Assembly (NCBI GenBank): GCA_964365305.1
Contig: CAYIPG010000003.1
Span: forward strand, 1-49,903
From: an uncultured Candidatus Saccharibacteria bacterium
Lineage (GTDB): Bacteria; Patescibacteriota; Minisyncoccia; JACQLN01
Reading direction: 5' to 3'
Length of the DNA stretch: 49,903 nt
The stretch's first letter is position 1. Each line of letters begins with the position of its first letter. Made by a program: the position numbers and the translations under genes. Positions 25,928 to 49,903 of this stretch are shown here, in pieces. Under the pieces are notes generated by a model that saw only the letters and a program-made list of their open reading frames with translations, was not told the origin of the DNA and made no database searches.

Positions 25928-28138
25928 TTATGTCAATTTCCTCATTTCGCCCCAATTAGGCCCGGCCTCCATTTCCACCACCAACGGCACGGGCAAATCA
26001 ATAATATTTTCCATTATTTTTTTAATAATCGGCGCGTATTTGTTAACCGACTCCTTTTTAACTTCAAAAACAATTTCATCATGCACCTGCAAAATCATGG
26101 CGATATCGTCTGCCTTCGAAAACTCAATGTCTAGCTCTACCATAGCGGCTTTAACAACATCCCCCGTGGCCGTGCCTTGCACCGGCATGTTAATGGCCAT
26201 TCTTTCGGCGCTGGCCCGCAACATCGGATTGGGCGATTTAAGATCGTCTAAATAACGCCGCCGACCCCACAAGGTCTCCACGAAACCGCGGCTGCGGCCG
26301 AGGCGTTTCATATCTTCCATAAACTGAATCAGTTCTGGAAAATTATCCCTATATTTCTGAAAAAAGCTTTTGGCTTCAGCTAGTCCTAAGCCGGTTGATT
26401 GAGCAAAGGATTTAGGGCCCATGCCGTATAAAATTCCAAAATTAAGCGCTTTGGCTTCGCGGCGCATTTCTTTGGTAACTTCGGCGGGCTCAATATTAAA
26501 AACCTCGGCGGCGGTGCGAGTGTGAATATCCTCGCCGCGCCTAAATGTTTCTATCATTTTTTCATCGCCCGACATGGCCGCTGCCACCCGCAGTTCTATT
26601 TGAGAATAATCCACGGCCAAAATTAAAAACCCCGGCGGAGCGATAAAGGACTTTCTAATTTCCGTGCCGTACTCGCCCTTGGTGGGAATATTTTGCAAAT
26701 TGGGATTTTCCGAAGCCAGCCGGCCCGTAACCGCGCCCAGTTGCTTAAACGAGGTGTGAATCCGTCCATCTTTAAGGCTGACCAATCGAGGCAGGGCTTC
26801 CACATAGGTGGATTGCAGTTTAGAAAGCTCGCGCCAACGCAACATTAGCGGAATTATCGGATGAGCGTTCTTTAATTTTTCCAACTCCTCAAAAGCCGTG
26901 GAAAACGCGCCTTTTTTGGTTTTTTTAATTCGGGCGCCCATGCCTAAATTTAATTTTTCGAAAATGATTCGGCCTAGTTCCTGGGTGGAATTTAAATTAA
27001 AATCCTCGCCGGATAGTTCTTTTACTTTTATTTTTATTTGAATCAATTCTTGGGCTATTTTCTGGCTTAAATTTTTTAGCACGCCAACATCAATCAAAAA
27101 ACCGCGCTGTTCTATTTTTCTTAAAACCGGCGTTAACTTTTTTTCCAATTCATAAATTTTTTGGGAAAATATCTTTCTGTCTAAATAATCTTTTAAGTCG
27201 TCCTCGGTATTACTAATCAACTGACCCTGGATCTCTGGAGCTGACTGGCCTGCGCCTAAAATACCCTCCAGCCGGTTAATCAAACTCCGAAAGCCAAACC
27301 GGTTAAAAACATTTTTAACTTTTTCCGCGTCTATAACTAACTTTGAGACCTCAAGATCAAACTCCACCGGCGCGTCGCGGCTAATAGTCGCTAATTGCCG
27401 GCTTAAAAAGGCCTGATCTTTAAACTTAATCAACTTTTCTTTTAAGAGCGGTTTTATTTTTTTATCTTTGTTTAAATTTTGATAAAGATCTTCCAAATTT
27501 TTATAATTTTGAAGCAACGCAATTGCGGTTTTCTCCCCCACACCCGGCACACCCGGAATATTATCGGACGGATCGCCCTTTAGGCCTTTGTAATCAATCA
27601 CTTGACCGGGTACCAAACCCTCAAATCTTGCTTTAACCGAGGCCCCATCATAAATAACCGTGTCGGTCACGCCCTTGCGCAAGGTATAAACCTTGATGGT
27701 GTCGTTGTCTATCAACTGCAAGGTATCCATATCGCCGGTTACAATAATTTTTTCTAGATCTTTTTTGTTTTTAAATTTTTCCACCACCGTGCCCACGATA
27801 TCATCGGCTTCAAAACCGGTTTTGGCCAAAACCGGAATGCCGAAAGCCGTTACAATTTCTTTAACCAGATCAAACTGATTGACCAAGTCAATATCCACGG
27901 CGGGACGGTTGGCTTTATAATCCGTAAATTCTTTATGCCGGAAAGTCGGCCCAGCCGAATCAAAAGCCGCCAGCACGAAATCGGGCTTTAGTTCTTTAAT
28001 CACCCGCATCAAAATACTGGCAAAACCGTAAACCGCGCCCACATTCTCGCCCTGGGGCGAAGTCAACGGCGGCACGGCATGATAAGCGCGGTGGATTAAA
28101 GCGTGGCTGTCTAAAATAACCAGTTTTTCTTTTTTCAT
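25928..28138 (-). CDS. polA: DNA polymerase I (5'-3' exonuclease + polymerase; proofreading domain absent)
   Basis: EADD, GDPSDNIPGVPGVG, NPNLQNIP, DYSQIELR, QVHDE; only 736 aa. Confidence 0.95.
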   Translation of the reverse strand: MKKEKLVILDSHALIHRAYHAVPPLTSPQGENVGAVYGFASILMRVIKELKPDFVLAAFDSAGPTFRHKEFTDYKANRPAVDIDLVNQFDLVKEIVTAFGIPVLAKTGFEADDIVGTVVEKFKNKKDLEKIIVTGDMDTLQLIDNDTIKVYTLRKGVTDTVIYDGASVKARFEGLVPGQVIDYKGLKGDPSDNIPGVPGVGEKTAIALLQNYKNLEDLYQNLNKDKKIKPLLKEKLIKFKDQAFLSRQLATISRDAPVEFDLEVSKLVIDAEKVKNVFNRFGFRSLINRLEGILGAGQSAPEIQGQLISNTEDDLKDYLDRKIFSQKIYELEKKLTPVLRKIEQRGFLIDVGVLKNLSQKIAQELIQIKIKVKELSGEDFNLNSTQELGRIIFEKLNLGMGARIKKTKKGAFSTAFEELEKLKNAHPIIPLMLRWRELSKLQSTYVEALPRLVSLKDGRIHTSFKQLGAVTGRLASENPNLQNIPTKGEYGTEIRKSFIAPPGFLILAVDYSQIELRVAAAMSGDEKMIETFRRGEDIHTRTAAEVFNIEPAEVTKEMRREAKALNFGILYGMGPKSFAQSTGLGLAEAKSFFQKYRDNFPELIQFMEDMKRLGRSRGFVETLWGRRRYLDDLKSPNPMLRASAERMAINMPVQGTATGDVVKAAMVELDIEFSKADDIAMILQVHDEIVFEVKKESVNKYAPIIKKIMENIIDLPVPLVVEMEAGPNWGEMRKLT

Positions 28139-28614
28139 GTGATAGTTATTTTTCTTTGTGTGACTCCAACTGTTTCAAAGTAAATTTTTTTAGCATTTTT
28201 GGGCAGATATTTTTCTATTTTTTCCGGCCATTCGATTAAAATTATATTTTTTTTATCTTTCAAAATATCCCGAAGGCCCAAGGCCAATAAGTCCTTAGCT
28301 GATTTTAGGCGATAAGTATCTATATGAACCAAAAACTTTTTATTTGTGTGTTTATTCGTATCATTCGCATACATTCGTGGATTGGCATCGTATATCTCAA
28401 AGGTTTTCATTATTACAAAAGTTGGACTCAATATTTTTTCTTTGATTCCCAAGGCCTTGGCAAAAAATTGAACAAAAGTTGTTTTACCCGCGCCTAAATC
28501 ACCGTATAACGCAATCACCGAAGGACCGCCCTTCGCTGATATTTCCTTGACTAGTTTTTTGGACAGTTTTTGGGTGTCTTTAAGATTTTTAGCCACAAAT
28601 TCCATTGCCATCAT
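28135..28614 (-). CDS. tsaE: tRNA t6A biosynthesis ATPase TsaE, with in-frame repeat insert
   Basis: GDLGAGKTTF, SPTF, HIDTYRL, IEWP. Confidence 0.95.
   Translation of the reverse strand: MMAMEFVAKNLKDTQKLSKKLVKEISAKGGPSVIALYGDLGAGKTTFVQFFAKALGIKEKILSPTFVIMKTFEIYDANPRMYANDTNKHTNKKFLVHIDTYRLKSAKDLLALGLRDILKDKKNIILIEWPEKIEKYLPKNAKKIYFETVGVTQRKITIT
28353..28392. repeat. GxxExxY-type repeat, single arm, in frame within tsaE
   Basis: TATTCGTATCATTCGCATACATTCGTGGATTGGCATCGTA, encoding YDANPRMYANDTN on the minus strand. Confidence 0.85.
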
Positions 28615-39289: not shown

Positions 39290-40669
39290 TCAAGATTGGT
39301 AAATTCTATTTTTAATTATATTAAGTTCTTCAATCATGGTTTCGTTGGACTGTATTTCTCGGTTTATTTTATCACAAGCGTGCATGACGGTGGTGTGATC
39401 CCGTCCGCCGAATTTTTCACCAATAAAAGGATAGGAATTTTTTAATTCTTCGCGCATTAAATACATGCAAATTTGGCGAGGCAGGACTATTTCTCTTTTT
39501 CTAGATTGAGTCATTAAATCCTCCTCTTTCAGATCGTAGAAATCAGCCACGGCTTTAATTATGGCCTTAGGTGTTGTTTTAGTGGTGTTGTTGTGGTTGG
39601 TTGAGGCCAATATTATTTTGGTTTTTTCAATACTGGGAATTAGCCCCTCAACTTTACAAGTCATCACCACTCTATTTAAGGCCCCCTCCAATTCTCTTAT
39701 ATTCTTAGTTATAGTGTTGGCTATATACGCTAAAATATCATCATTTAACTCGCCTAAGTCCTTTTCTATTAGTTTTGTTTTTAATATAGCGATTCTAGTC
39801 TCGTAGTCCGGCGGGGTGATATCGGCTATCATACCTCCTTCAAACCTAGACCTTAAACGATCTTCCAGGGTGGCGATGGCTTTGGGCGGGCGGTCTGAAG
39901 ATAGCACTATTTGGTTGTTTTTGCCGTAGAGTTCGTTAAAAATATGGAACAATTCTTCTTGGGTTTTCTCTTTTCCGGATAAAAATTGGACATCGTCTAA
40001 AATGAGCAGGTTTATTTTTTTGTATTCTTCCTTAAACTTATCAACTGTTTTATTTTTTATGGAAGTTATAAGGTCGCCCGAGAATTTTTCGGTTGATAGA
40101 TATTTTATTTTGCTTTTAGGGTTATTTTTTAAGACCTCATTGCCGATGGACTGGAGTAGGTGCGTTTTGCCCAAACCCACGCCGCCATAAATAAACAGCG
40201 GGTTGTAAATAGTTCCGGGATTTTTACTTACAGCCACTGCGGCGGCATGCGCCAATTGGTTGGCGGAACCCACTACAAACGAATCAAAAGTATATCTAGA
40301 GTTAAGATTGGTTTCTTTATCTGGAATAACTGTTTCCGAAAGGTTTAGTTGGATATCTGAAGCAAAAGATAAAGCATGTTCTTTTTTTCTGCTTTGGCTT
40401 AAATGTTTTTCGGCTTCAATGGCCTGGGTCTTGATAATAAACCGGATTTCTTTGGTGTCCGGGGCCATATTTCTTAAAATTTTAAGTATTAACAGGTTAT
40501 ATTTTGTTTCCAACCACTCTTTATTGAAAGCGTTGGGAGTAGATAAAAGCACTACCCCATCTTTTTTAGATATTATGGAAGTATTCCTAAACCAAGTTAC
40601 AAAATTGGCTTTGGATAGCGAAAGTTCTACTTCCGCTAAAGCTGATTGCCACAATTCGTCTTTGTCCAT
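39290..40669 (-). CDS. dnaA: Chromosomal replication initiator DnaA
   Basis: YTFDSFVVG, YNPLFIYGGVGLGKTHL, DDVQF, RELEGAL, GGRDHTTVMHA; start at 40669 or 40693. Confidence 0.98.
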   Translation of the reverse strand: MDKDELWQSALAEVELSLSKANFVTWFRNTSIISKKDGVVLLSTPNAFNKEWLETKYNLLILKILRNMAPDTKEIRFIIKTQAIEAEKHLSQSRKKEHALSFASDIQLNLSETVIPDKETNLNSRYTFDSFVVGSANQLAHAAAVAVSKNPGTIYNPLFIYGGVGLGKTHLLQSIGNEVLKNNPKSKIKYLSTEKFSGDLITSIKNKTVDKFKEEYKKINLLILDDVQFLSGKEKTQEELFHIFNELYGKNNQIVLSSDRPPKAIATLEDRLRSRFEGGMIADITPPDYETRIAILKTKLIEKDLGELNDDILAYIANTITKNIRELEGALNRVVMTCKVEGLIPSIEKTKIILASTNHNNTTKTTPKAIIKAVADFYDLKEEDLMTQSRKREIVLPRQICMYLMREELKNSYPFIGEKFGGRDHTTVMHACDKINREIQSNETMIEELNIIKNRIYQS

Positions 40670-40910
40670 GTTTTTATTTAGTCCAACCGCCAAATAAAAA
40701 ATATTTTTAAAAGATAACTTCCAAAAAATCAGGTTACTTTTTATATTCGCGTCTCGTAGCTTAAAATCAAAGCGTCGTGAGAGAAAAATCTTCGTTGGGA
40801 ATTATATCACAAGGCCTAACAAATAAAAATTTGCTCCAAAAGACGGTTTATTGTGGAAAAGATGTTGATGTAATGTGGATTACTAAAATTATAGAATTAA
40901 GATTAATAAT

Positions 40911-42433: not shown

Positions 42434-42922
42434 TTGGATATGGATAAAGAAAAGGTTATACGAGATTTAATAACTCGATTCTTGGAACTTATCGGCGCTG
42501 ATGTTATTGGTCTGGAAATCAAGCAAGACTTGGAAAATACTAAGGTTAGCGCTACTGTGGGCGAGGCCGGTTTTTTGATCGGCCACGATGGCGAAAATTT
42601 ACGAGCCATTCAGTATATTTTAGCGCTGATGGTGGCGAGGCAGACCCAAGAAATTTTTAAACCCAGCGCTTTTACCATAGATATAAATAATTATCGCCAG
42701 GAAAAAGAAAATTATTTAACGGCTCTGGCCAAAAATTCGGCGGCCGAGGTTTTAGAAACAAAAAAATCGGTGGAACTGGAACCCATGCCGGCCTATGAGC
42801 GAAGAATCGTTCATATAACTCTGGAAAAGATAGAAGGAATTAAAAGCGAGAGTGTGGGCGAAGGAGAAGAAAGGAGGATTGTTATCAAACCAGAGCATAA
42901 TGCGATGCCAATCAGCGAATGA
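42434..42922 (+). CDS. Jag/KhpB-like KH-R3H RNA-binding protein
   Basis: LIGHDGENLRAIQ KH, PMPAYERRIVH R3H; C-terminus extended by the repeat element. Confidence 0.9.
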   Translation: MDMDKEKVIRDLITRFLELIGADVIGLEIKQDLENTKVSATVGEAGFLIGHDGENLRAIQYILALMVARQTQEIFKPSAFTIDINNYRQEKENYLTALAKNSAAEVLETKKSVELEPMPAYERRIVHITLEKIEGIKSESVGEGEERRIVIKPEHNAMPISE

Positions 42923-42998
42923 CATGCGAATTATACAAATATATTTACGAGTTCGTTTTCTATTCGTATCATTCGCATAAATTAGTATATTAACATCG
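42903..42998. repeat. GxxExxY-type inverted-repeat element after jag
   Basis: CGATGCCAATCAGCGAATGACATGCGAATTATACAAAT...TATTCGTATCATTCGCATAAATTAGTATATTAACATCG. Confidence 0.9.
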
Positions 42999-43000
42999 TG

Positions 43001-44110
43001 TTAGAGCGTTAAGCGATACAGTCGGCCGTCTATTTTATTTATAAAGAAAAGATAGGCCTCGTTGGCCGAGAGCAACAAGTCGGTAGCGTCGGTTGGAATT
43101 TTAATAATATCTTTTTGCTCGCCGGTTTCAATATTTATTTTAACAATTGTTTCAGCGCCGGGCCTTAATTTGCCTTTATAGTAATCATCAGGCATCATAA
43201 ATTCGTTGTCGGTTTCAAAGCGGGAGCAGAATAAAGAACGGTTGTCTTGCACCCAAAGGCATTTTTCGGGCAACGAGAACAAGTCCATCCTTTTTTCCGT
43301 TTTTTTAATTAGATCTAAGACCTTTATTTCTAGGTTAAGGCCATTTTCGTCGGTCTTAGAAACCAAAACCTTGTCGCCCACCGGTGAGAACAACGCCGTT
43401 AAACCATAGGTATTGCCGATAATGCGGTTGATTTTTTTGGTCTTTATATCAACCAAATACAACAAACCGTAGGCCAAACCCGAGGGTCGGGTTGTTAGCG
43501 CGATGGTGTTACTGGTGGGCCAAACCAGCATCAAATCGGGAATTTTAATTGAAGCAATTGTGGTGGTTTTGGCTTGATCATCAACCACAACCAATTGCCG
43601 CAGGCCTTTATCTAACAACGCCATAGCTATTTTGGAGCCGCGGGGTTCAAAGGCCGAGGCCTCCATGTTTTGTGGCAAGGCCTTAATGGTTTTGTTTTCT
43701 AAATCAAAAATTAAATAGCGGTTTTGGCCCGAGGGCAGGGTCTGGCGCAATGATATTTTTTTACCATCGTCCGAGAACTCCACTCGGCTTATTTTTTCGC
43801 TGGCCACCGTGCCGAGTTTGGTTTTGCTTTGGCCGTCTTGGTCTATTTGGTTGATGGCGCCGTCCCAGGCCACATAGTTTATTTTACCGTCTGGATTCAA
43901 ACCAGCGCCCAAGACCGATTCTTCGGTTAAAGCTATCAGCCGTTCTTTGGTTTCGGGAACGAGCTCGGAAATTTCTGGAATTTCGCCCGGGCTGGGCGGA
44001 GGAGTTACGGGTCGTTTCTTAAAGAAAAGATTATAAATCACCAAAATAACAAAAACAATAACTAGAATTACAGCGGTTATGATCAATATTTTTTTTATTC
44101 GGTGGCTCAT
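43001..44110 (-). CDS. Membrane-anchored beta-propeller-like hypothetical protein
   Basis: N-terminal TM anchor, Pro linker, WD/TolB-like strands (FSDDGKK, FSPVGDK). Confidence 0.7.
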   Translation of the reverse strand: MSHRIKKILIITAVILVIVFVILVIYNLFFKKRPVTPPPSPGEIPEISELVPETKERLIALTEESVLGAGLNPDGKINYVAWDGAINQIDQDGQSKTKLGTVASEKISRVEFSDDGKKISLRQTLPSGQNRYLIFDLENKTIKALPQNMEASAFEPRGSKIAMALLDKGLRQLVVVDDQAKTTTIASIKIPDLMLVWPTSNTIALTTRPSGLAYGLLYLVDIKTKKINRIIGNTYGLTALFSPVGDKVLVSKTDENGLNLEIKVLDLIKKTEKRMDLFSLPEKCLWVQDNRSLFCSRFETDNEFMMPDDYYKGKLRPGAETIVKINIETGEQKDIIKIPTDATDLLLSANEAYLFFINKIDGRLYRLTL

Positions 44111-44113
44111 ATT

Positions 44114-44791
44114 TTATTGTTGTGGCGTTTGAATGCCCGCTGGTCGTGTTCCGCCAGTGGGTGGGTTTGCTACTGGATTGGCCGGTAATGACTCACTGGA
44201 TTGAGGCGGCAGTTGTAATTGCGTCCCTATACAATATCCAACTTTTTTTGAATCGGCGCCCGAACAAACAGTTCCTTCTATGCAATCAAAATTAACCTTG
44301 CACATACCCCCGCGGGCACTTTTTTGGCAAACACTTTTGTCGCACACACTAGATAGGCAAACAGAATAGTTATTGCACGAACCACCAGCGCCTTTAAGTC
44401 CTAGAGCAACATAAGGATCGCCTTGAATGTAAAAACTAACATCGGGATTGCGGAAATTAACAAGGTCGGGATTGATGGTGTTAAGAACAATATAAGAACC
44501 CAAGAGTATTAACAGGCCGATGATGGCTTTTTTTATTCTTTCGCGGGCCGCCGAGACCTTGCTGCTATTTTCGCCGGCTAACATCCATTCTATGCCGGCG
44601 CGGGTGAAGGCGTAGATCAAACCCAAACCCACTATACCCAAGGCAAAAACAAAAATATAGTTGATCCATTGAGCCGGGCCAAAAGTGTCCTGGGGTTTAA
44701 TGCCGCCAAACGCCGGAAAATCAACTTCCAAAGCCAACACTACTGTTGGCACGAGCGTTATTATCGCCAAAATAACGATTATAAACTTCAT
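44114..44791 (-). CDS. VirB2/TrbC-like pilin with Cys-rich C-terminal domain
   Basis: AGIEWMLAG...SAARERIKKAIIGLLILLGSYIVLNTINPDL pilin motif; start moved to MKFII. Confidence 0.7.
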   Translation of the reverse strand: MKFIIVILAIITLVPTVVLALEVDFPAFGGIKPQDTFGPAQWINYIFVFALGIVGLGLIYAFTRAGIEWMLAGENSSKVSAARERIKKAIIGLLILLGSYIVLNTINPDLVNFRNPDVSFYIQGDPYVALGLKGAGGSCNNYSVCLSSVCDKSVCQKSARGGMCKVNFDCIEGTVCSGADSKKVGYCIGTQLQLPPQSSESLPANPVANPPTGGTRPAGIQTPQQ

Positions 44792-44800
44792 TCGTTTTTT

Positions 44801-44838
44801 TATTAGTATCATTCGCATGAATTCGTAGATTAGCATCG
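44801..44838. repeat. GxxExxY-type repeat, single arm
   Basis: TATTAGTATCATTCGCATGAATTCGTAGATTAGCATCG. Confidence 0.85.
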
Positions 44839-44843
44839 CAAAT

Positions 44844-45602
44844 TTATCTTATATACAAAGTAATTCTACCCTCGGCTCTTTGATTGATATCGTTCCTTAA
44901 TTTTTTATGAGTGGCCAGTAGTTTTAAGTTGGTCTGCGTGCCCAAACGGGTTCGTGGTGTTATATTTATCGGCAAAACCATCGGGTCGGCGCTGGTGTTT
45001 TCTTGCGGTTGACCGTCTAAAAACCATTTCAAATCCAAATCATTTTCATTCAAAGCGTTGAAACTAAATATCTTAGCCATTAAAGCGCTGTCCTGGCCGG
45101 GCGGCGTGTCCCACAGAGTAGGCGCGGGATTATTGTAATTATCATTATTTTTTAGATAAAAATCTATTTCCGGCCGAACCGTATTTATTTTTAGAGCCGC
45201 CGAGGCGCTTTTGCCGGTGGCTTCATCGGTGGCGGTGACTCGCAGTTCGTGGGTGAATTCCGGAATTTGATAAGTTATTAGCAAAAACGAATCTTTGCCT
45301 TTACCGGTCTGATCCGGCCCTTCGCGGTTGCTGGAAGCGTCGTCCACTATCCAGGTGTAAGTTAAATTTTGGGGATTAGGCACATTAGCCAAGGCGTAAA
45401 TTGTCACCCCCGAGAGTGTGCTGGGCAAGGCCTTGCCTGGATAATCATAGGGCGTTAGGGTATTGGCTTTCCATACTAAATCCAACTGAAAATCACCGCC
45501 GGCTGATATGGTTGTACTTTGCGCCAGAGACGCGCACGGCGCCGCCAGCAAGGCGACGGAAATAGCGAGAGGTATAAATATTTTTCTTGTTATAATTCTC
45601 AT
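44844..45602 (-). CDS. Secreted Ig/PKD-like hypothetical protein
   Basis: Signal peptide; two beta-rich domains (LTYTWIVD, LKWFLDG). Confidence 0.65.
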   Translation of the reverse strand: MRIITRKIFIPLAISVALLAAPCASLAQSTTISAGGDFQLDLVWKANTLTPYDYPGKALPSTLSGVTIYALANVPNPQNLTYTWIVDDASSNREGPDQTGKGKDSFLLITYQIPEFTHELRVTATDEATGKSASAALKINTVRPEIDFYLKNNDNYNNPAPTLWDTPPGQDSALMAKIFSFNALNENDLDLKWFLDGQPQENTSADPMVLPINITPRTRLGTQTNLKLLATHKKLRNDINQRAEGRITLYIR

Positions 45603-45630
45603 TTTGTTTCTTTACCAACCCAAGCCTGGC

Positions 45631-46050
45631 TTAGGCGATTTTGGGTTTGCCTTGGGCGAATGACTCTATAAAACTTAAAACCTTATCTACTTGTTCGTAC
45701 TCTTTTAAGTGGGCTCTGACCACAAAAATGGCGTTTTGGGGTATCAAGTTTATAAAAGGAATAAATTCTAATATCATGGTAAAAATATATTTTCTATAAA
45801 TCCATTTTTGCACATAACCTATTTTTTTCCTCATGTATAAAAACATAATCGGGGTTATTATAATGTTGGCAATTACTCCCAAAATAATTCCGCCATCCAA
45901 CCAATCAATTATATCTTTGGTCAGCGCCAACAGAAAAATTAAAAAAGGAAAATCAGGCGATTCCGGTTTTTCAATTCTGGCTTGTTCAACATCTTCTTCT
46001 TCTACACCCTCCAATTTTAAGTTTTCCAGTTCTTCATTATAGTTGGCCAT
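45631..46050 (-). CDS. Hypothetical membrane protein
   Basis: Hydrophobic segments, EFIPFINLIP; coupled to the VirB4 gene. Confidence 0.65.
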   Translation of the reverse strand: MANYNEELENLKLEGVEEEDVEQARIEKPESPDFPFLIFLLALTKDIIDWLDGGIILGVIANIIITPIMFLYMRKKIGYVQKWIYRKYIFTMILEFIPFINLIPQNAIFVVRAHLKEYEQVDKVLSFIESFAQGKPKIA

Positions 46051-47849
46051 TATTGCTGTTGCGCCAATTCTTTTTTAGCCGCTTCTATTTCTAACAACTG
46101 CGCCGGATCAGAAGTAATAACTTGATCTTCGGTGTATGACGCCACCACTTTTATGGCCGCTCGTTTTAAGCCGGCGATAAAAATACCCTCGCCCACATTG
46201 GACTCCAACAGCAAAAATTTTTCTTCATCGGTTAAATTAAATGTCTGCGTTACCACATCTATAGCCGCCGGCGACTGCTTTAGCAGAATTTGCATGGAGG
46301 AGTTGGTGACAATCGGTTTGCCGTATTGCGACTTCATAAAATCCTCCACATCTTGGGTAATAGTGGTTAAGCCCAAATAGTATTTACGGCACCTTTTGGC
46401 GATGCTGAACAAAAAAGCCGCCGCTTCGGGATGTTGCATCATCCACCAGGCCTCGTCCACCACCATTATTCGTTTTTTCTGTTGATAGCGGATTAAATTC
46501 CACACAAAATGCAGCAAAATATACATGGCAATGGGGCGGAGTTCCGGTTCCAGATCTCTTATGGAAAACACCACCAGGTTATTGTTTAGCGCCACATTGG
46601 TGGGCTGGTTTAAAAAGCCCGAAAAAGAACCTTTCACAAATTTTTCCAGCCGCACCGCCAGTTTTTCGGCGCCCTGCATGTTTTGCAGCACGGTGTAAAG
46701 ATCGCCCATCAATGGCGCGGGCTTGCCTCTCCAATCGGTGTTGATGGTGATGTCGCGCGAGGCGTAGGTTTCGGTAACGGCGCGATCCATGATGGCGTCT
46801 TCCTCGGGCGTTAACTGCCCCAGCATCACTTTTAACAAACCAGTTAGTTGAATGATATTGCTTTTTAACGATTCGGCCGGGCTTTCGTTTTTAGTCGGTT
46901 CGGTCAGATCAAAAGGATTAATATGGTGAGGCGAAGTTAGAGAAATGTTTATAAAAGTTCCGCCCACCACATCATTTAGATATTTATATTCGCTTTCAGG
47001 ATCAATAATAATCACATCCGTGCCCAACATTAGCGATCGCAACACTTCCAGTTTCACGGTGTAGCTTTTGCCCGAACCGGATTTAGCAAAAACCACCGAG
47101 TTGGCATTTTCCAAAGAAAAACGGTCAAATAAAATCAAACTATTATTATGGCGGTTGATGCCGTAGAGCACGCCTTTGTTGGATGTTAAATCGGCCGAAA
47201 CAAAAGGAAACATAGAAGAAATCGGGCCGGTGTTTAAGCTGGTGTAGACGCCCAATTTATCCAGGTTTATGGGCAGAGTGGTGGCAAAGCCCTTTTCTTG
47301 CTGAAAAACAGCCGTTTTGGTGTACACTAATTTAGATTCCATGAGCGTGGTGATTTGTTTTTCTATTTCATCCAGTTCTTGCAATGATTTGCCGTAGAAA
47401 GTTATATAGAGTCCGACTCTAAAAAATTTCTCGGTGCCTTGTTGGAGTTTATCCCGCAGTGATTCTAAATCCTGATAGGCCGTTTCCAGCATGGGATCAC
47501 GAATAAAGCCGCCTTCTTCTTTTTCGGAGATTTGGGCGCCGATTTGCGCCGTTTTCTTGCCAAGTTTTTTTAGCACCGGGCCGGTTTGGGTGGGCTGAAC
47601 CACCATGGCAATATCAAAAATCTTATCCATATTTATTATCGGAGAAAACCAGCTCACGCTTAAAAATCTGGGATAAGTGGCCACAAAAATAGTTCGGGCA
47701 AATTTTTCGCCTATTTGAAGATAAGTCGGATTTATTTGCATCGCCGAGGGCGCCAAAAGATCTTGTAATCCTTGACCCTCGGCTTTAATTTGCGCCGTTC
47801 CTGGTTTAGTTGGCGCCAACTTGGATTTTAGGTCTTGTAATATGCTCAT
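46050..47849 (-). CDS. VirB4-like ATPase
   Basis: FAKSGSGKS Walker A, IIDPESEY, INPFD, VVDEAW, RKY...TQD. Confidence 0.92.
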   Translation of the reverse strand: MSILQDLKSKLAPTKPGTAQIKAEGQGLQDLLAPSAMQINPTYLQIGEKFARTIFVATYPRFLSVSWFSPIINMDKIFDIAMVVQPTQTGPVLKKLGKKTAQIGAQISEKEEGGFIRDPMLETAYQDLESLRDKLQQGTEKFFRVGLYITFYGKSLQELDEIEKQITTLMESKLVYTKTAVFQQEKGFATTLPINLDKLGVYTSLNTGPISSMFPFVSADLTSNKGVLYGINRHNNSLILFDRFSLENANSVVFAKSGSGKSYTVKLEVLRSLMLGTDVIIIDPESEYKYLNDVVGGTFINISLTSPHHINPFDLTEPTKNESPAESLKSNIIQLTGLLKVMLGQLTPEEDAIMDRAVTETYASRDITINTDWRGKPAPLMGDLYTVLQNMQGAEKLAVRLEKFVKGSFSGFLNQPTNVALNNNLVVFSIRDLEPELRPIAMYILLHFVWNLIRYQQKKRIMVVDEAWWMMQHPEAAAFLFSIAKRCRKYYLGLTTITQDVEDFMKSQYGKPIVTNSSMQILLKQSPAAIDVVTQTFNLTDEEKFLLLESNVGEGIFIAGLKRAAIKVVASYTEDQVITSDPAQLLEIEAAKKELAQQQ

Positions 47850-47854
47850 AAATG

Positions 47855-47946
47855 CGATGCTAATCTACGAATTCATACGAATTATACTAATTTAATATTC
47901 GAATATCTTATTTGTTTCATTCGCATAAATTTGTATATTGGCGTCG
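47855..47946. repeat. GxxExxY-type inverted-repeat element
   Basis: CGATGCTAATCTACGAATTCATACGAATTATACTAAT...TTTCATTCGCATAAATTTGTATATTGGCGTCG. Confidence 0.9.
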
Positions 47947-47948
47947 TG

Positions 47949-48620
47949 TCATTCAACTTTTTTGGCTTCGTCTCCGGTGGCGATTAGTTGTTCCAGATTT
48001 TTTTGTTTTAATACCACTCCGGGGTTATAACTGGTGTAGAGCAGTTCTATCAGTTCTTCTCGTTCCAACAGAATGGTTTTAAGTCCCAGAGCGCCCAAAA
48101 GCGTCTGCACCTGGTTGACTCTTTGCAGTAATTGATTTTTTTTGGCTTCAAAATCCAAGTCCCGTTGGTTTGTTTGATCAGCCGATGATTTAGAAAAAAG
48201 TTTTCCAAAAAAACCACCGCCGCTTGTTAGATCTATCATAGCAACGCCCAACGGCACCACCACATAAAAATACTTGGACATGATGTTGGAAAGTTTAATC
48301 AGTTCTTCTATAAAGCCGGCGTATTCGCTGGTTTGTATTTTTAGGAGTTCGTTGGTTTGTTTTTCGGCTTGATCTTTCAGGAAAGATATATATTCGGAAA
48401 TATCCAATTGCCGCGATTGCATGACAATCTGCGCGGTATAATCCAGCGAATTTATAAAATCCTGAAAACGGTTTATAACGGCCTGCTGTTCGTCTTCCGA
48501 TTTTAAGGCGAAATTAATGGAAGACACCATTAAAACCATTCTTAAACTACCGCCTTTTAACACGGCGATATTTTCTTTGATGTCCTGAATATCTATTAAT
48601 TGATGGGTTGATCCTTCCAT
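47949..48620 (-). CDS. VirB4-associated conserved protein
   Basis: SINFALKSEDEQ, QIVMQSRQLDI, YFYVVVP; lies between prgI-like and virB4-like genes. Confidence 0.75.
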   Translation of the reverse strand: MEGSTHQLIDIQDIKENIAVLKGGSLRMVLMVSSINFALKSEDEQQAVINRFQDFINSLDYTAQIVMQSRQLDISEYISFLKDQAEKQTNELLKIQTSEYAGFIEELIKLSNIMSKYFYVVVPLGVAMIDLTSGGGFFGKLFSKSSADQTNQRDLDFEAKKNQLLQRVNQVQTLLGALGLKTILLEREELIELLYTSYNPGVVLKQKNLEQLIATGDEAKKVE

Positions 48621-48626
48621 ATAACA

Positions 48627-48718
48627 CGATGCTAATATACGAATTTGTACGAATGATACGAATAATTTATTCGAACTTTAATTAGTATCATTCGCATGTC
48701 ATTTGTTGATTGGCATCG
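48627..48718. repeat. GxxExxY-type inverted-repeat element
   Basis: CGATGCTAATATACGAATTTGTACGAATGATACGAAT...ATTAGTATCATTCGCATGTCATTTGTTGATTGGCATCG. Confidence 0.9.
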
Positions 48719-48721
48719 CAC

Positions 48722-49000
48722 TTACTTTTTCTTCCACAAATACAATTGCGGTCTCATGGCAAAGCCGATCATATTCACGATATATTTGGGCGCGGGTGTA
48801 TCTTTTATTTTTCCAAAAGCCAAAAACAGGGTTAGAGTTAATACCGGCACTGAAACCATTATAGCGAACGCTGTGGTTAAGAGCGAGAAAGAAATAAAAG
48901 CGATCACTCCGCCCGCGGCTACATAACCGAACTGTTTCAATGTTAACGGGCCGACTATTTTATCTTCGCTCTCTATGAATTGTGGAACTTGGAATTGCAT
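48722..49000 (-). CDS. PrgI family protein
   Basis: MQFQVPQFIESEDKIVGPLTLKQF plus 2 TM. Confidence 0.9.
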   Translation of the reverse strand: MQFQVPQFIESEDKIVGPLTLKQFGYVAAGGVIAFISFSLLTTAFAIMVSVPVLTLTLFLAFGKIKDTPAPKYIVNMIGFAMRPQLYLWKKK

Positions 49001-49002
49001 AG

Positions 49003-49197
49003 ACGATGCTAATTTACGAATTTATGCGAATAATACGAATGGGTTTCAAATATTTATTTCTGAAATTTACCAATAAACCAAGTTTCATATCCGTATCCTA
49101 AAAAGTATACCAGTTATTTTGTAGGAAAGTTCTTTGTGAATTATTTTATTCGTATCTTTATTTGTTTCATTCGTATTCATTTGTATATTAGCATCGT
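49003..49197 (-). mobile_element. Long copy of the inverted-repeat element containing an internally deleted GxxExxY nuclease gene (49180-49014)
   Basis: Minus strand reads MNTNETNKDTNKIIHKELSYKITGILF, then in another frame TDMKLGLLVNFRNKYLKPIRIIRINS*; these match the N- and C-termini of GxxExxY proteins; start and stop codons lie inside the IR arms. Confidence 0.75.
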
Positions 49198-49205
49198 GTT
49201 TATGT

Positions 49206-49903
49206 TTATGCGCTAAAAAATCCATTATAACCATTTTTTTTCTTGGTATTTCTTAAATCAACCACATTTTTATTGGGAATATGCCAATTGGCCGGACGAG
49301 CGGGGGGCGGGCTTTGATTCTGGGGCGGCGATATTGGCCGGGGCGCTTGATACGAATCGTTTCTAGGGCGATTGTTTTCCTGGGCTTTCAATTTCTCCAG
49401 CAATTCCCTTCTCTTTCTTTCAGCATCATTGTTTTGAGTATTGGAAATTGCCGGCCCACCGTAATCTTGATGAAGGCGGGGGGTTTGATTGGTGTTTGGT
49501 ACTTGGTAATTTGTATTTTGTTTTGCGGCATTTTGATTCGCATTTATATTCGTATCATTCGCGCTCATTCGTTGATTGGCATCGTGTTTAAGTCCGTGCA
49601 CCTGCATCAAACTTTCTTTGACCGGCTGAAAAATCGCTTGGTTAATATCTTGAGCAATCATTTGCGCCGTTTGCAAATCAATCTTTAGTTCATTTCGCAA
49701 AGACAAAATAAAATTATTTATTGGTAACTCGCCCAGAAATATCAACCCGATTATTCGGGCGGTTGCGCTGATACTGGCTTCTGGTAGATGATATTCCTCT
49801 TTGATCAAATTCCAAATACTTCCGGCGGTCTCTTCAGCCAACATGGACTCTTGCAAGTCCGCCGGCAGTTGATAGAAAACGGTAAATCTCCGCCGCACCA
49901 GCG
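49206..49903 (-). CDS. Hypothetical protein (5' end beyond the window) with a repeat-derived low-complexity linker
   Basis: Helical domain (IAQDINQAIFQPVKESL), then HDANQRMSANDTN and other repeat-encoded peptides; NVVDLR tail. Confidence 0.7.
   Translation of the reverse strand, partial: LVRRRFTVFYQLPADLQESMLAEETAGSIWNLIKEEYHLPEASISATARIIGLIFLGELPINNFILSLRNELKIDLQTAQMIAQDINQAIFQPVKESLMQVHGLKHDANQRMSANDTNINANQNAAKQNTNYQVPNTNQTPRLHQDYGGPAISNTQNNDAERKRRELLEKLKAQENNRPRNDSYQAPRPISPPQNQSPPPARPANWHIPNKNVVDLRNTKKKNGYNGFFSA
49547..49586. repeat. GxxExxY-type repeat, single arm, in frame in the CDS
   Basis: TATTCGTATCATTCGCGCTCATTCGTTGATTGGCATCGTG, encoding HDANQRMSANDTN. Confidence 0.85.

Follow-up and report, generated by a model that had tools for sequence, protein, structure and literature searches.

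A probable internally deleted GxxExxY (PDDEXK_3) cassette, with terminal codons inside its inverted repeats, at a variable intercistronic site of a Candidatus Saccharibacteria genome

Introduction

Is the palindromic sequence that fills the gap between two neighboring genes of an uncultured Candidatus Saccharibacteria bacterium what remains of a gene-bearing cassette and, if so, does it connect such cassettes to the many shorter palindromic elements of the same genome? An earlier note, written by a model from the letters of the DNA, had answered yes to both, describing 49003-49197 as a "missing link", i.e., an internally deleted GxxExxY gene intermediate between a full cassette and empty elements of ~95 bp.

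The stretch analyzed here (the window) is an entire contig of 49,903 bp (C3; CAYIPG010000003.1, positions 1-49,903) of assembly GCA_964365305.1, referred to below as G000, a genome of 0.66 Mb in 55 contigs. Window DNA occurs in groundwater metagenome runs, and GxxExxY homologs carry Patescibacteria-group labels in public records. The available text of a PD-(D/E)XK survey gives the function of PDDEXK_3 as "Unknown" (PMC3424549).

Results

Anatomy of the element

The element is intergenic and spans 193-195 bp, with the stop codon of a 230-aa gene on one side and a PrgI-family ATG on the other. Its parts and neighbors, listed from high to low coordinates, are:

49206..49898, minus strand: upstream host gene, 230 aa, running to the contig end (ORF list)
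49160..49197, minus strand: A arm, the gene-proximal 5' inverted repeat, with ATG 49180-49178 (repeat search, arm alignment)
49100..49180, minus strand: probable N-terminal relic of 27 codons, matching residues 3-28 of the intact ortholog (BLASTP)
49086..49100, minus strand: probable deletion junction with frame shift, after a T5 run (split local alignments to the G008 cassette)
49017..49097, minus strand: probable C-terminal relic of 27 codons, in a second frame and matching ortholog residues 102-128 (BLASTP)
49003..49040, minus strand: B arm, the 3' inverted repeat, with TAA 49016-49014 (repeat search)
48722..49000, minus strand: downstream host gene, PrgI family, 92 aa, used as synteny anchor (Pfam PF12666, E 1.1e-10)
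48627..48718, minus strand: 92-bp arm-only element that follows the PrgI stop codon and precedes the next ATG
47855..47946, minus strand: 92-bp arm-only element that follows the stop codon of a 223-aa gene and precedes the ATG of a 599-aa one, which we take by eye to be VirB4-like

The two inverted arms (inverted-repeat search) are 38 nt long, 79% complementary and separated by 119 nt; a gap of 8-9 nt lies between the upstream stop codon and the A arm, and 3 nt between the end of the B arm and the PrgI-family ATG. The A arm is composed of ACGAAT/ACAAAT units at ~8-12 nt spacing and aligns with the arms of 30 short elements and three cassettes. As the earlier note had written, the coding pieces come from two minus-strand ORFs: MNTNETNKDTNKIIHKELSYKITGILF opens at ATG 49180-49178 within ORF 49085-49234, while MKLGLLVNFRNKYLKPIRIIRINS, preceded by DTD in frame, belongs to ORF 49014-49088 and ends at TAA 49016-49014. 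Both the ATG and the TAA fall within the 38-nt arms, which encode the first and last residues, again as claimed.

No frame can be read through the element with 40 aa or more on both sides, i.e., it is not an in-frame insertion of the Rickettsia type. A solo arm at 49532-49593 (repeat family D1; spanning-frame test) does lie in frame inside the upstream 230-aa gene, and only two solo arms in the window are in frame. Folded as RNA, the element is predicted to form a long imperfect arm-arm hairpin with paired termini (-37.3 kcal/mol, z -3.5); the fold of a 92-bp element is likewise a hairpin (z -3.8). Rfam places no family on any of the elements, and its sole match with E<0.01, an AsdA-like one, lies inside dnaA.

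Homology to GxxExxY proteins

The two peptides were compared with P0001, the intact 128-aa GxxExxY protein of G008, a genome of the same family as G000 and of another genus (PF13366, 66.6 bits vs a cut-off of 22). By pairwise BLASTP, the N-peptide is identical to residues 3-28 at 21 of 27 positions (E 5e-11), and the C-peptide to residues 102-128, likewise at 21 of 27 (E 1e-13), which bears out their recognition as the two ends of a GxxExxY protein. Of the homology and profile matches that the earlier note expected, those to the intact homolog were obtained for both peptides, whereas curated profiles stayed below threshold on the fragments alone: the C-peptide reaches 14.2 bits against TIGR04256 (cut-off 35, E 0.043, model positions 95-115 of 116), the N-peptide has no TIGR04256 match, and neither has a Pfam match. 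A profile built from 25 relatives was also run over the genome, cut into 25,709 stop-to-stop fragments in six frames; the fragment with the C-peptide is its top match (E 0.0023) and that with the N-peptide ranks sixth (E 3.3, over just 12 profile positions), and no further GxxExxY remnant was found among these fragments. The assembly has no PF13366 or TIGR04256 match and no intact GxxExxY gene; a "full cassette", in the earlier note's term, is accordingly missing from the assembly, by profile searches as by the genome-wide scan. TIGR04256 was matched in 18 of 61 related genomes, and one GxxExxY subfamily member has 428 relatives at E<=1e-10.

Seven residues (E40, D71, E81, K83, Q95, Y99 and F113) are invariant in the alignment of the 25 relatives, and the missing span, residues 29-101, takes in all of them save F113. 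Deletion of the catalytic core, as originally proposed, is thus confirmed, and since residues 29-101, and with them the GxxExxY helix and the E...D...ExK residues E40, D71, E81 and K83, are absent, the element would be the relic of a family member rather than a working one; as its frames read, it cannot encode the nuclease. Compared with the G008 cassette, about 212-215 bp are lost, which is not a multiple of three and hence changes the frame. Split local alignments were used for this comparison, global MAFFT having misaligned the relic's 5' half. Taken together, sequence comparison makes it very probable that 49003-49197 is an internally deleted, dead GxxExxY cassette (PDDEXK_3, PD-(D/E)XK fold), originally of ~0.4 kb, with its terminal codons in the arms.

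As to the intact protein, a PDB sequence search with P0001 gave nothing meaningful, and a PDB profile search matched only T7 endonuclease I, which resolves four-way junctions, and did so weakly along the D...ExK block (E 0.026 and 0.067). A likewise weak match to Pfam Phage_endo_I (E 0.052) is not independent of these, and an Atlas search returned PDDEXK_3 clusters only.

Reality and position of the junction

Logan contigs of four runs were compared with window positions 44000-49903. Two of them, from two separate studies, cross the whole relic with no gap and one difference each (X3, 720 nt, 49002-49721; X5, 615 nt, 49002-49616), and the junction is therefore not an assembly artifact, the outcome that the earlier note had named as fatal to its reading. 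A short form created by misassembly or misbinning, through collapse across repeated arms, would fit the repetition of the arms (31 pairs), the peaks of depth in arm-bearing bins and the tendency of contigs to break at arms; given the gapless contigs across relic and junction, and a comparable deletion in a sister genome (G005, see below), it is barely credible. A minority full-length allele may nonetheless exist at this site alongside the contigs.

A contig of a related strain (X7, 8 differences in 280 nt) lacks exactly 49086-49098, which indicates that the junction is variable in the population; these 13 nt could be either filler or what is left of the gene. The breakpoint is localized to 49086-49100, just past the T5 run, a span within which it has no single-base placement. 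The sequence GGATA-C-GGATA, which the earlier note offered as possible microhomology, is present on the minus strand at ~49088-49098; its 12 nt align at 7 of 12 positions with ortholog codons (hand count), decisive neither way, and a role in the deletion is unsupported. As a separate observation, a contig of run X7 also joins 49147 to 49548, two direct arm copies, a join that is maybe repeat-induced.

The same site in related genomes

PrgI orthologs are present in 9 of 11 genomes of the family, and the site upstream was compared in those nine. Window positions 42538-49901 are collinear with G008:C6 6225-14240 (tblastx), and G005 shares a genus with G008. The states of the site are:

G008: intact cassette, 407 bp arm to arm, between the same two host genes
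G000: 193-195-bp probable relic
G005: 138-bp probable relic with a deeper deletion
G004 and G001: empty (TAA, one base, ATG)
G007 and G009: four-helix-bundle ORF, with arms of another family
G006: arms of the G007/G009 family without an ORF
G002: third ORF-and-arm type (four-helix-bundle cassette)

The intact gene that the earlier note suggested seeking at this locus thus exists in a sister genome (P0001 of G008). The ORFs of G007, G009 and G002 are presumably of the PF05635 type, as recognized by eye. Between them, the nine genomes show this site, a hot spot, as intact, decayed, replaced and empty.

The G005 relic retains the N-terminal part up to the same T-run and then just the final codons, with a right breakpoint that differs from that of G000. 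As G005 and G008 are congeneric and G008 is intact, the G000 and G005 deletions were probably independent. Deletion does gut such cassettes, as the relic and the G005 copy indicate. P0005, a database protein with 80% identity to P0001, has a called N-terminus that extends into the end of the upstream gene and matches the G005 relic; this match suggests that P0005 is an intact copy at the same site in yet another lineage.

The retained parts of the relic are 74-86% identical to G008, and the flanking genes 68-75%, the segments compared being short (38-55 nt). Such low divergence is odd for an old pseudogene. In addition, the relic termini fit the genome-wide consensus CGATGC...GCATCG, while those of G008 and G005 have drifted. 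Since the site is a hot spot with several cassette types, G000 and G008 may have been invaded separately, and the G000 copy may have come already deleted. Most simply, however, the relic would have decayed in place.

Gene and arms as one unit

Inverted repeats flanking GxxExxY genes exceed shuffled flanks (z>5) at 20 of 27 loci of the relatives and at 19 of 30 loci of a phylum-wide even sample, in which the family is found in 38 of 301 genomes (80 matches, up to 6 copies per genome). The G008 ortholog falls short in this shuffle test (z 1.7) because its termini have drifted; its arms still align to the family. Arms are runs of a 6-8-nt unit at ~8-12 nt spacing, and the unit varies by lineage (ACGAAT, GCGGAT, GCTAAT, CCGAAT and others), with the ORF always central, between the innermost arm units. 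Read in frame, ACG-AAT and GCG-AAT units give TN and AN repeats. The earlier note's derivation of low-complexity TN/AN N-termini from the arms is thereby supported: such N-termini are present in at least 21 of 24 fetched homologs, and many C-termini read ...KPIRIIRI(D/N)S. In relatives, full cassettes also lie in frame inside host genes, including lepA and recG. G000 itself has three PF05635 matches, with arm families of their own.

The co-variation of arms and gene, the codons inside the arms, the presence of up to six paralogs and the weak similarity to T7 endonuclease I lead us to infer that the intact GxxExxY enzyme would act on its own arms. Several observations stand against the nuclease as mobilizer: at the same site, arms of an analogous kind enclose four-helix-bundle ORFs, which are not nucleases; in G000, 30 short elements, some of them recent-looking copies, coexist with no intact gene; G008 has an intact gene and yet few arm matches; no target-site duplication is seen; and the T7 endonuclease I similarity is not significant.

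Short arm-only elements

Searching G000 for the arm motif with up to 2 mismatches gave 80 matches, 62 of which form 31 convergent pairs, all 31 intergenic. Thirty pairs span 88-107 bp and the relic pair alone 193 bp, with nothing between 107 and 193. A same-strand ATG lies 3-9 nt past the B arm in 24 of the 31 pairs, and a same-strand stop codon 3-12 nt ahead of the A arm in 19. In the arm alignment, four units on the left and three to four on the right are common to short elements and cassettes. The arm subfamily of most short elements is not that of the relic, whose diagnostic arm variants occur in a minor subfamily (C28:2991, C28:4280 and C6:6647). The 193-bp form is single-copy in G000, in contrast to a MITE, which is multi-copy.

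Some pairs of short elements at unrelated loci are 97-99% identical, with unrelated flanks; together with the tight size class, this implies that short elements spread as short elements. At the junctions of 47855-47946 and 48627-48718, G008 has stop and start codons 1-2 nt apart and no element, which argues that both were inserted as short forms rather than decayed in place. The second junction, downstream of PrgI, is empty in three of nine genomes (G008, G004 and G001) and has palindromic inserts in the other six; judged by eye, ACGAAT-type arms are confined to G000 and G005, and the remaining four look like four different arm types. No target-site duplication is visible between filled and empty sites, the AT-rich flanks there measuring just 1-9 nt. 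G008 has 19 arm matches vs 10 in a reversed-pattern control, and over ten family genomes no tie was seen between arm copy number and the presence of an intact GxxExxY gene, a weak comparison given that the pattern was tuned to the G000 consensus. The short elements would thus appear to be a separate self-propagating form and not products of the relic's decay; at the least, they need not be end points of decay of this type.

Discussion

Origin of the relic and of the short elements

The history most consistent with these observations would be that a cassette once sat at the stop/start junction and lost its core in place, through a slippage-type deletion starting in the T5A3 run, at which G005 may have lost more. 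What remains would be, in the operon transcript, a hairpin of roughly 195 nt between two cistrons, with no nuclease made. The relic would belong to a wider class of palindromic mini-cassettes that fit precisely into the gap from a stop codon to the following ATG and are co-oriented with the host genes, holding either a GxxExxY nuclease or a four-helix-bundle ORF, with arm-only forms as well. As a working mechanism, the nuclease may recognize its own lineage-specific arms, as palindrome or extruded cruciform, and promote copying or excision of the cassette. More speculatively, a resolvase-like cut at the cruciform base could give precise excision without target duplication, a result that would fit the TAA-N-ATG empty sites.

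Extended to CPR-type bacteria at large, this would mean a previously undescribed class of selfish one-ORF cassettes of ~0.4 kb, coding for a GxxExxY nuclease or a four-helix-bundle protein, with start and stop codons in iterated arms, driven by the nuclease and with arm-only forms that multiply by themselves, inserting and excising precisely, without target duplication, at stop/start junctions and, in frame, within such essential genes as lepA and recG. We hold this generalization only tentatively. If true, the 195-bp copy would be direct evidence that arms and ORF form a unit that decays from the inside.

Whether the relic is also an evolutionary intermediate, the ~95-bp arm-only elements being end products of stepwise internal deletion, is a matter on which the earlier note went further than the data. 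A graded series does exist at one orthologous site (407, 193-195 and 138 bp), a contig from one strain lacks 13 nt at the junction, the short element equals a cassette minus its ORF in the arm alignment, the minor subfamily has the relic's arm variants, and G006 has arms only where G007 and G009 are ORF-filled. Random deletion, however, should give a spread of lengths in place of a cluster at 88-107 bp with none at 107-193; the 97-99% identical pairs with unrelated flanks imply that the short form copies itself; most short elements have the other arm subfamily; and both window short elements stand at sites empty in G008. We therefore regard such a decay series as possible and rather doubtful. 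"Missing link to the 95-bp elements" is apt as a description of structure, and as a pathway is unproven and to be given limited credence.

The palindromes could alternatively be the targets of a homing process, in which a GxxExxY enzyme cuts the center of an empty palindrome of its own type, the gene is copied in by repair, and the relic marks the degenerate stage that such genes usually pass through after invading and becoming fixed, and before they are lost. A dimeric PD-(D/E)XK enzyme would be well served by a symmetric target, and small PD-(D/E)XK homing endonucleases exist, e.g., I-Ssp6803I. The central position of the ORF, the co-variation of arms with gene lineage, and the intact, decayed and absent states at one site all agree with this explanation, the position of the ORF fitting it and a mobilizing nuclease equally well. 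It would leave unexplained how palindromes spread to new stop/start junctions and why arms of this kind also enclose four-helix-bundle ORFs; introns and inteins play no part, cleavage is hypothetical, and the absent state at the relic site is also without the palindrome. It too has less in its favor than against it. A host function, whether as an intercistronic RNA hairpin (in processing, stability or translational coupling) or through two micro-ORFs, with the coding past irrelevant, is unlikely, even if it accords with the strict position and orientation (in 24 of 31 elements a same-strand ATG follows after 3-9 nt), the stable fold, the consensus termini of the relic as opposed to the drifted ones of G008 and G005, and retained parts no more diverged than the neighboring genes. 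At the same junctions, sister genomes manage with just 1-2 nt from stop to start and no element, and in other genomes unrelated palindrome families are found there; no Rfam family matches the relic, and the orientation bias may equally stem from replication direction.

Significance

Taken alone, the relic would be an ordinary pseudogene, and its value lies in tying abundant palindromic repeats to a gene family without known role. Together with its intact ortholog, it indicates that the gene and its iterated inverted repeats form one unit, which is gained, gutted and lost at a fixed intercistronic site. The large GxxExxY/PDDEXK_3 family thereby gains a testable role, as the putative enzyme of a palindromic mobile cassette. 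Two annotation oddities would also be explained, namely the TN/AN-rich N-termini with IRIIRI C-termini, and gene calls that run into arms. More broadly, palindromic elements appear to form a dynamic layer of very small genomes, occupying stop/start junctions and also, in relatives, the interior of conserved proteins.

Comparison with known systems

In the literature searched, outside which most subscription journals lie, no description of small ORFs in lineage-specific iterated inverted repeats was found, and none of five systems compared has a PDDEXK_3 gene with start and stop codons in such repeats. The relic resembles MITEs in its terminal inverted repeats, gutted ORF and small size, in the many short copies that share its ends, and in having an intact partner, in this case in a sister genome, whose ends are homologous. 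Unlike in MITEs, its family's gene is a 128-aa PD-(D/E)XK nuclease and no known transposase, the start and stop codons lie inside the repeats, insertion is precise between stop and ATG with no target-site duplication seen, and the deleted copy is single.

REPIN-RAYT systems, as far as the available source text describes them, are alike in having short lineage-specific palindromes across a small genome, tied to a small repeat-flanked gene. RAYTs are HUH tyrosine transposases in that text, whereas the partner here is PDDEXK_3 and not of the HUH (Y1) type; also unlike what that text describes, the repeats overlap coding sequence, GxxExxY occurs in up to 6 copies per genome, and the G000 partner is dead.

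We know of no enzyme partner of the Rickettsia palindromic elements, which likewise are palindromic repeats in a reduced genome, and in the available text of one source none is reported (PMC10969869). As described there, those elements insert in frame in genes and can be translated (PMC10969869), whereas the relic is intergenic.

The intervening sequences of 23S rRNA (PF05635) share with these cassettes stem-forming inverted flanks around a small ORF, and differ in that the PF05635-type copies here lie outside rRNA; 23S rRNA intervening sequences are excised by RNase III. Free-standing homing endonuclease genes, to which the PD-(D/E)XK fold is not foreign (I-Ssp6803I), differ from the cassette in that the latter is without intron or intein and is flanked by long iterated inverted repeats; they are alike in combining a small nuclease ORF with a polymorphism of presence, decay and absence at one site.

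Small-ORF families in the palindromes

The relic, an internally deleted GxxExxY nuclease gene between inverted arms (window 49003-49197, minus strand), lies 5' of the PrgI-family gene prgI. At the site 5' of the prgI ATG, three related genomes, G007 (L031), G009 (L036) and G002 (L037), have four-helix-bundle ORFs (23S-rRNA-IVS-protein-like; ORF type assigned by eye), surrounded by arm families other than that of the relic, and a fourth, G006 (L032), has the arm-only form. As these four-helix-bundle ORFs occupy the intergenic site of the relic, palindromes of the same kind carry small ORFs of two unrelated families. The genome under study itself has three matches to PF05635 (four-helix bundle), two of the three above the cut-off:

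C18:7043-7333, PF05635 match flanked by iterated-unit arms of its own
C11:16020-16253, PF05635 match flanked by iterated-unit arms of its own
C12:11209-11355, PF05635 match

The arm types flanking the C18 and C11 copies are TTTTCAAT-type and CCCATT-type.

Cassettes in frame within conserved genes

Conserved genes of relatives are interrupted in frame by entire GxxExxY cassettes, arms included:

L019, L001 and L006, in-frame GxxExxY cassette inside lepA
L027, in-frame GxxExxY cassette inside recG
L004, in-frame GxxExxY cassette inside an asparagine synthase gene
L007, in-frame GxxExxY cassette inside a glycosyltransferase gene

By Pfam, PDDEXK_3 is nested inside the GTP_EFTU domain of LepA, at an insertion site identical in three genomes, and in RecG it separates the DEAD domain from the Helicase_C domain; the catalytic residues of the nuclease are retained in the cassettes inserted within host genes. 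The lepA of the genome under study (C6:24873-26483) is uninterrupted at the loop where that of the relatives holds the cassette. Phylum-wide, in-frame cassettes are rare, with an open frame of >300 aa in 2 of 80 GxxExxY matches.

Probable recent copying and possible strain variation

Arm-only elements at unrelated loci of the genome under study are 98-99% identical, in the following pairs:

C2:9538 and C3:37815, near-identical arm-only pair
C12:18438 and C27:375, near-identical arm-only pair
C2:19139 and C5:29840, near-identical arm-only pair

An intact GxxExxY gene was not found in the assembly of this genome, and such identity without one points to recent copying via something else, via a lost gene or via an unassembled gene. 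Near the relic, a metagenomic contig (run X7) of a related strain is missing 13 nt at the deletion junction (window 49085-49099) and connects 49147 with 49548 across two directly repeated arm copies; this may reflect either a genuine deletion or a join induced by the repeats.

Solo arms and ORF calls

Two solo arms lie in frame in coding sequence in the window:

28338-28399, solo arm within ORF 28135-28614 (159 aa), by eye presumably TsaE-like; contributes ...DANPRMYANDTNKHTNKK... to the product
49532-49593, solo arm within ORF 49206-49898 (230 aa); contributes ...DANQRMSANDTNINANQ... to the product; absent at the matching place in G008

Called ORFs also extend into arms: ORF 44114-44836 (MLIYEFMRMILIKK...) has its listed start within the arm at 44786-44847. 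The called N-terminus of P0005, a database protein 80% identical to the intact G008 orthologue of the relic gene, runs into the 3' end of the gene upstream. Close to arm-bearing elements, N-termini as annotated are suspect.

The window also holds a sub-threshold Rfam match:

40109-40189, plus strand, AsdA-like (E 0.00021; 35.7 bits, where the gathering score is 52)

AsdA is an antisense RNA of the dnaA mRNA, and the match lies opposite ORF 39290-40693 (467 aa), which by eye we take to be dnaA.

The junction 3' of prgI

The junction between the prgI stop and the next ATG (window 48621-48721) was compared with its counterparts in L030-L037, covering nine family genomes. It is empty in three of the nine, with a stop-start gap of 1 nt, and palindromic inserts of 53-121 nt are present in the remaining six. 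By eye, ACGAAT-type arms occur here only in the genome under study and G005, the other four inserts each resembling a different arm type. Palindromic elements appear to share stop/start junctions as a niche.
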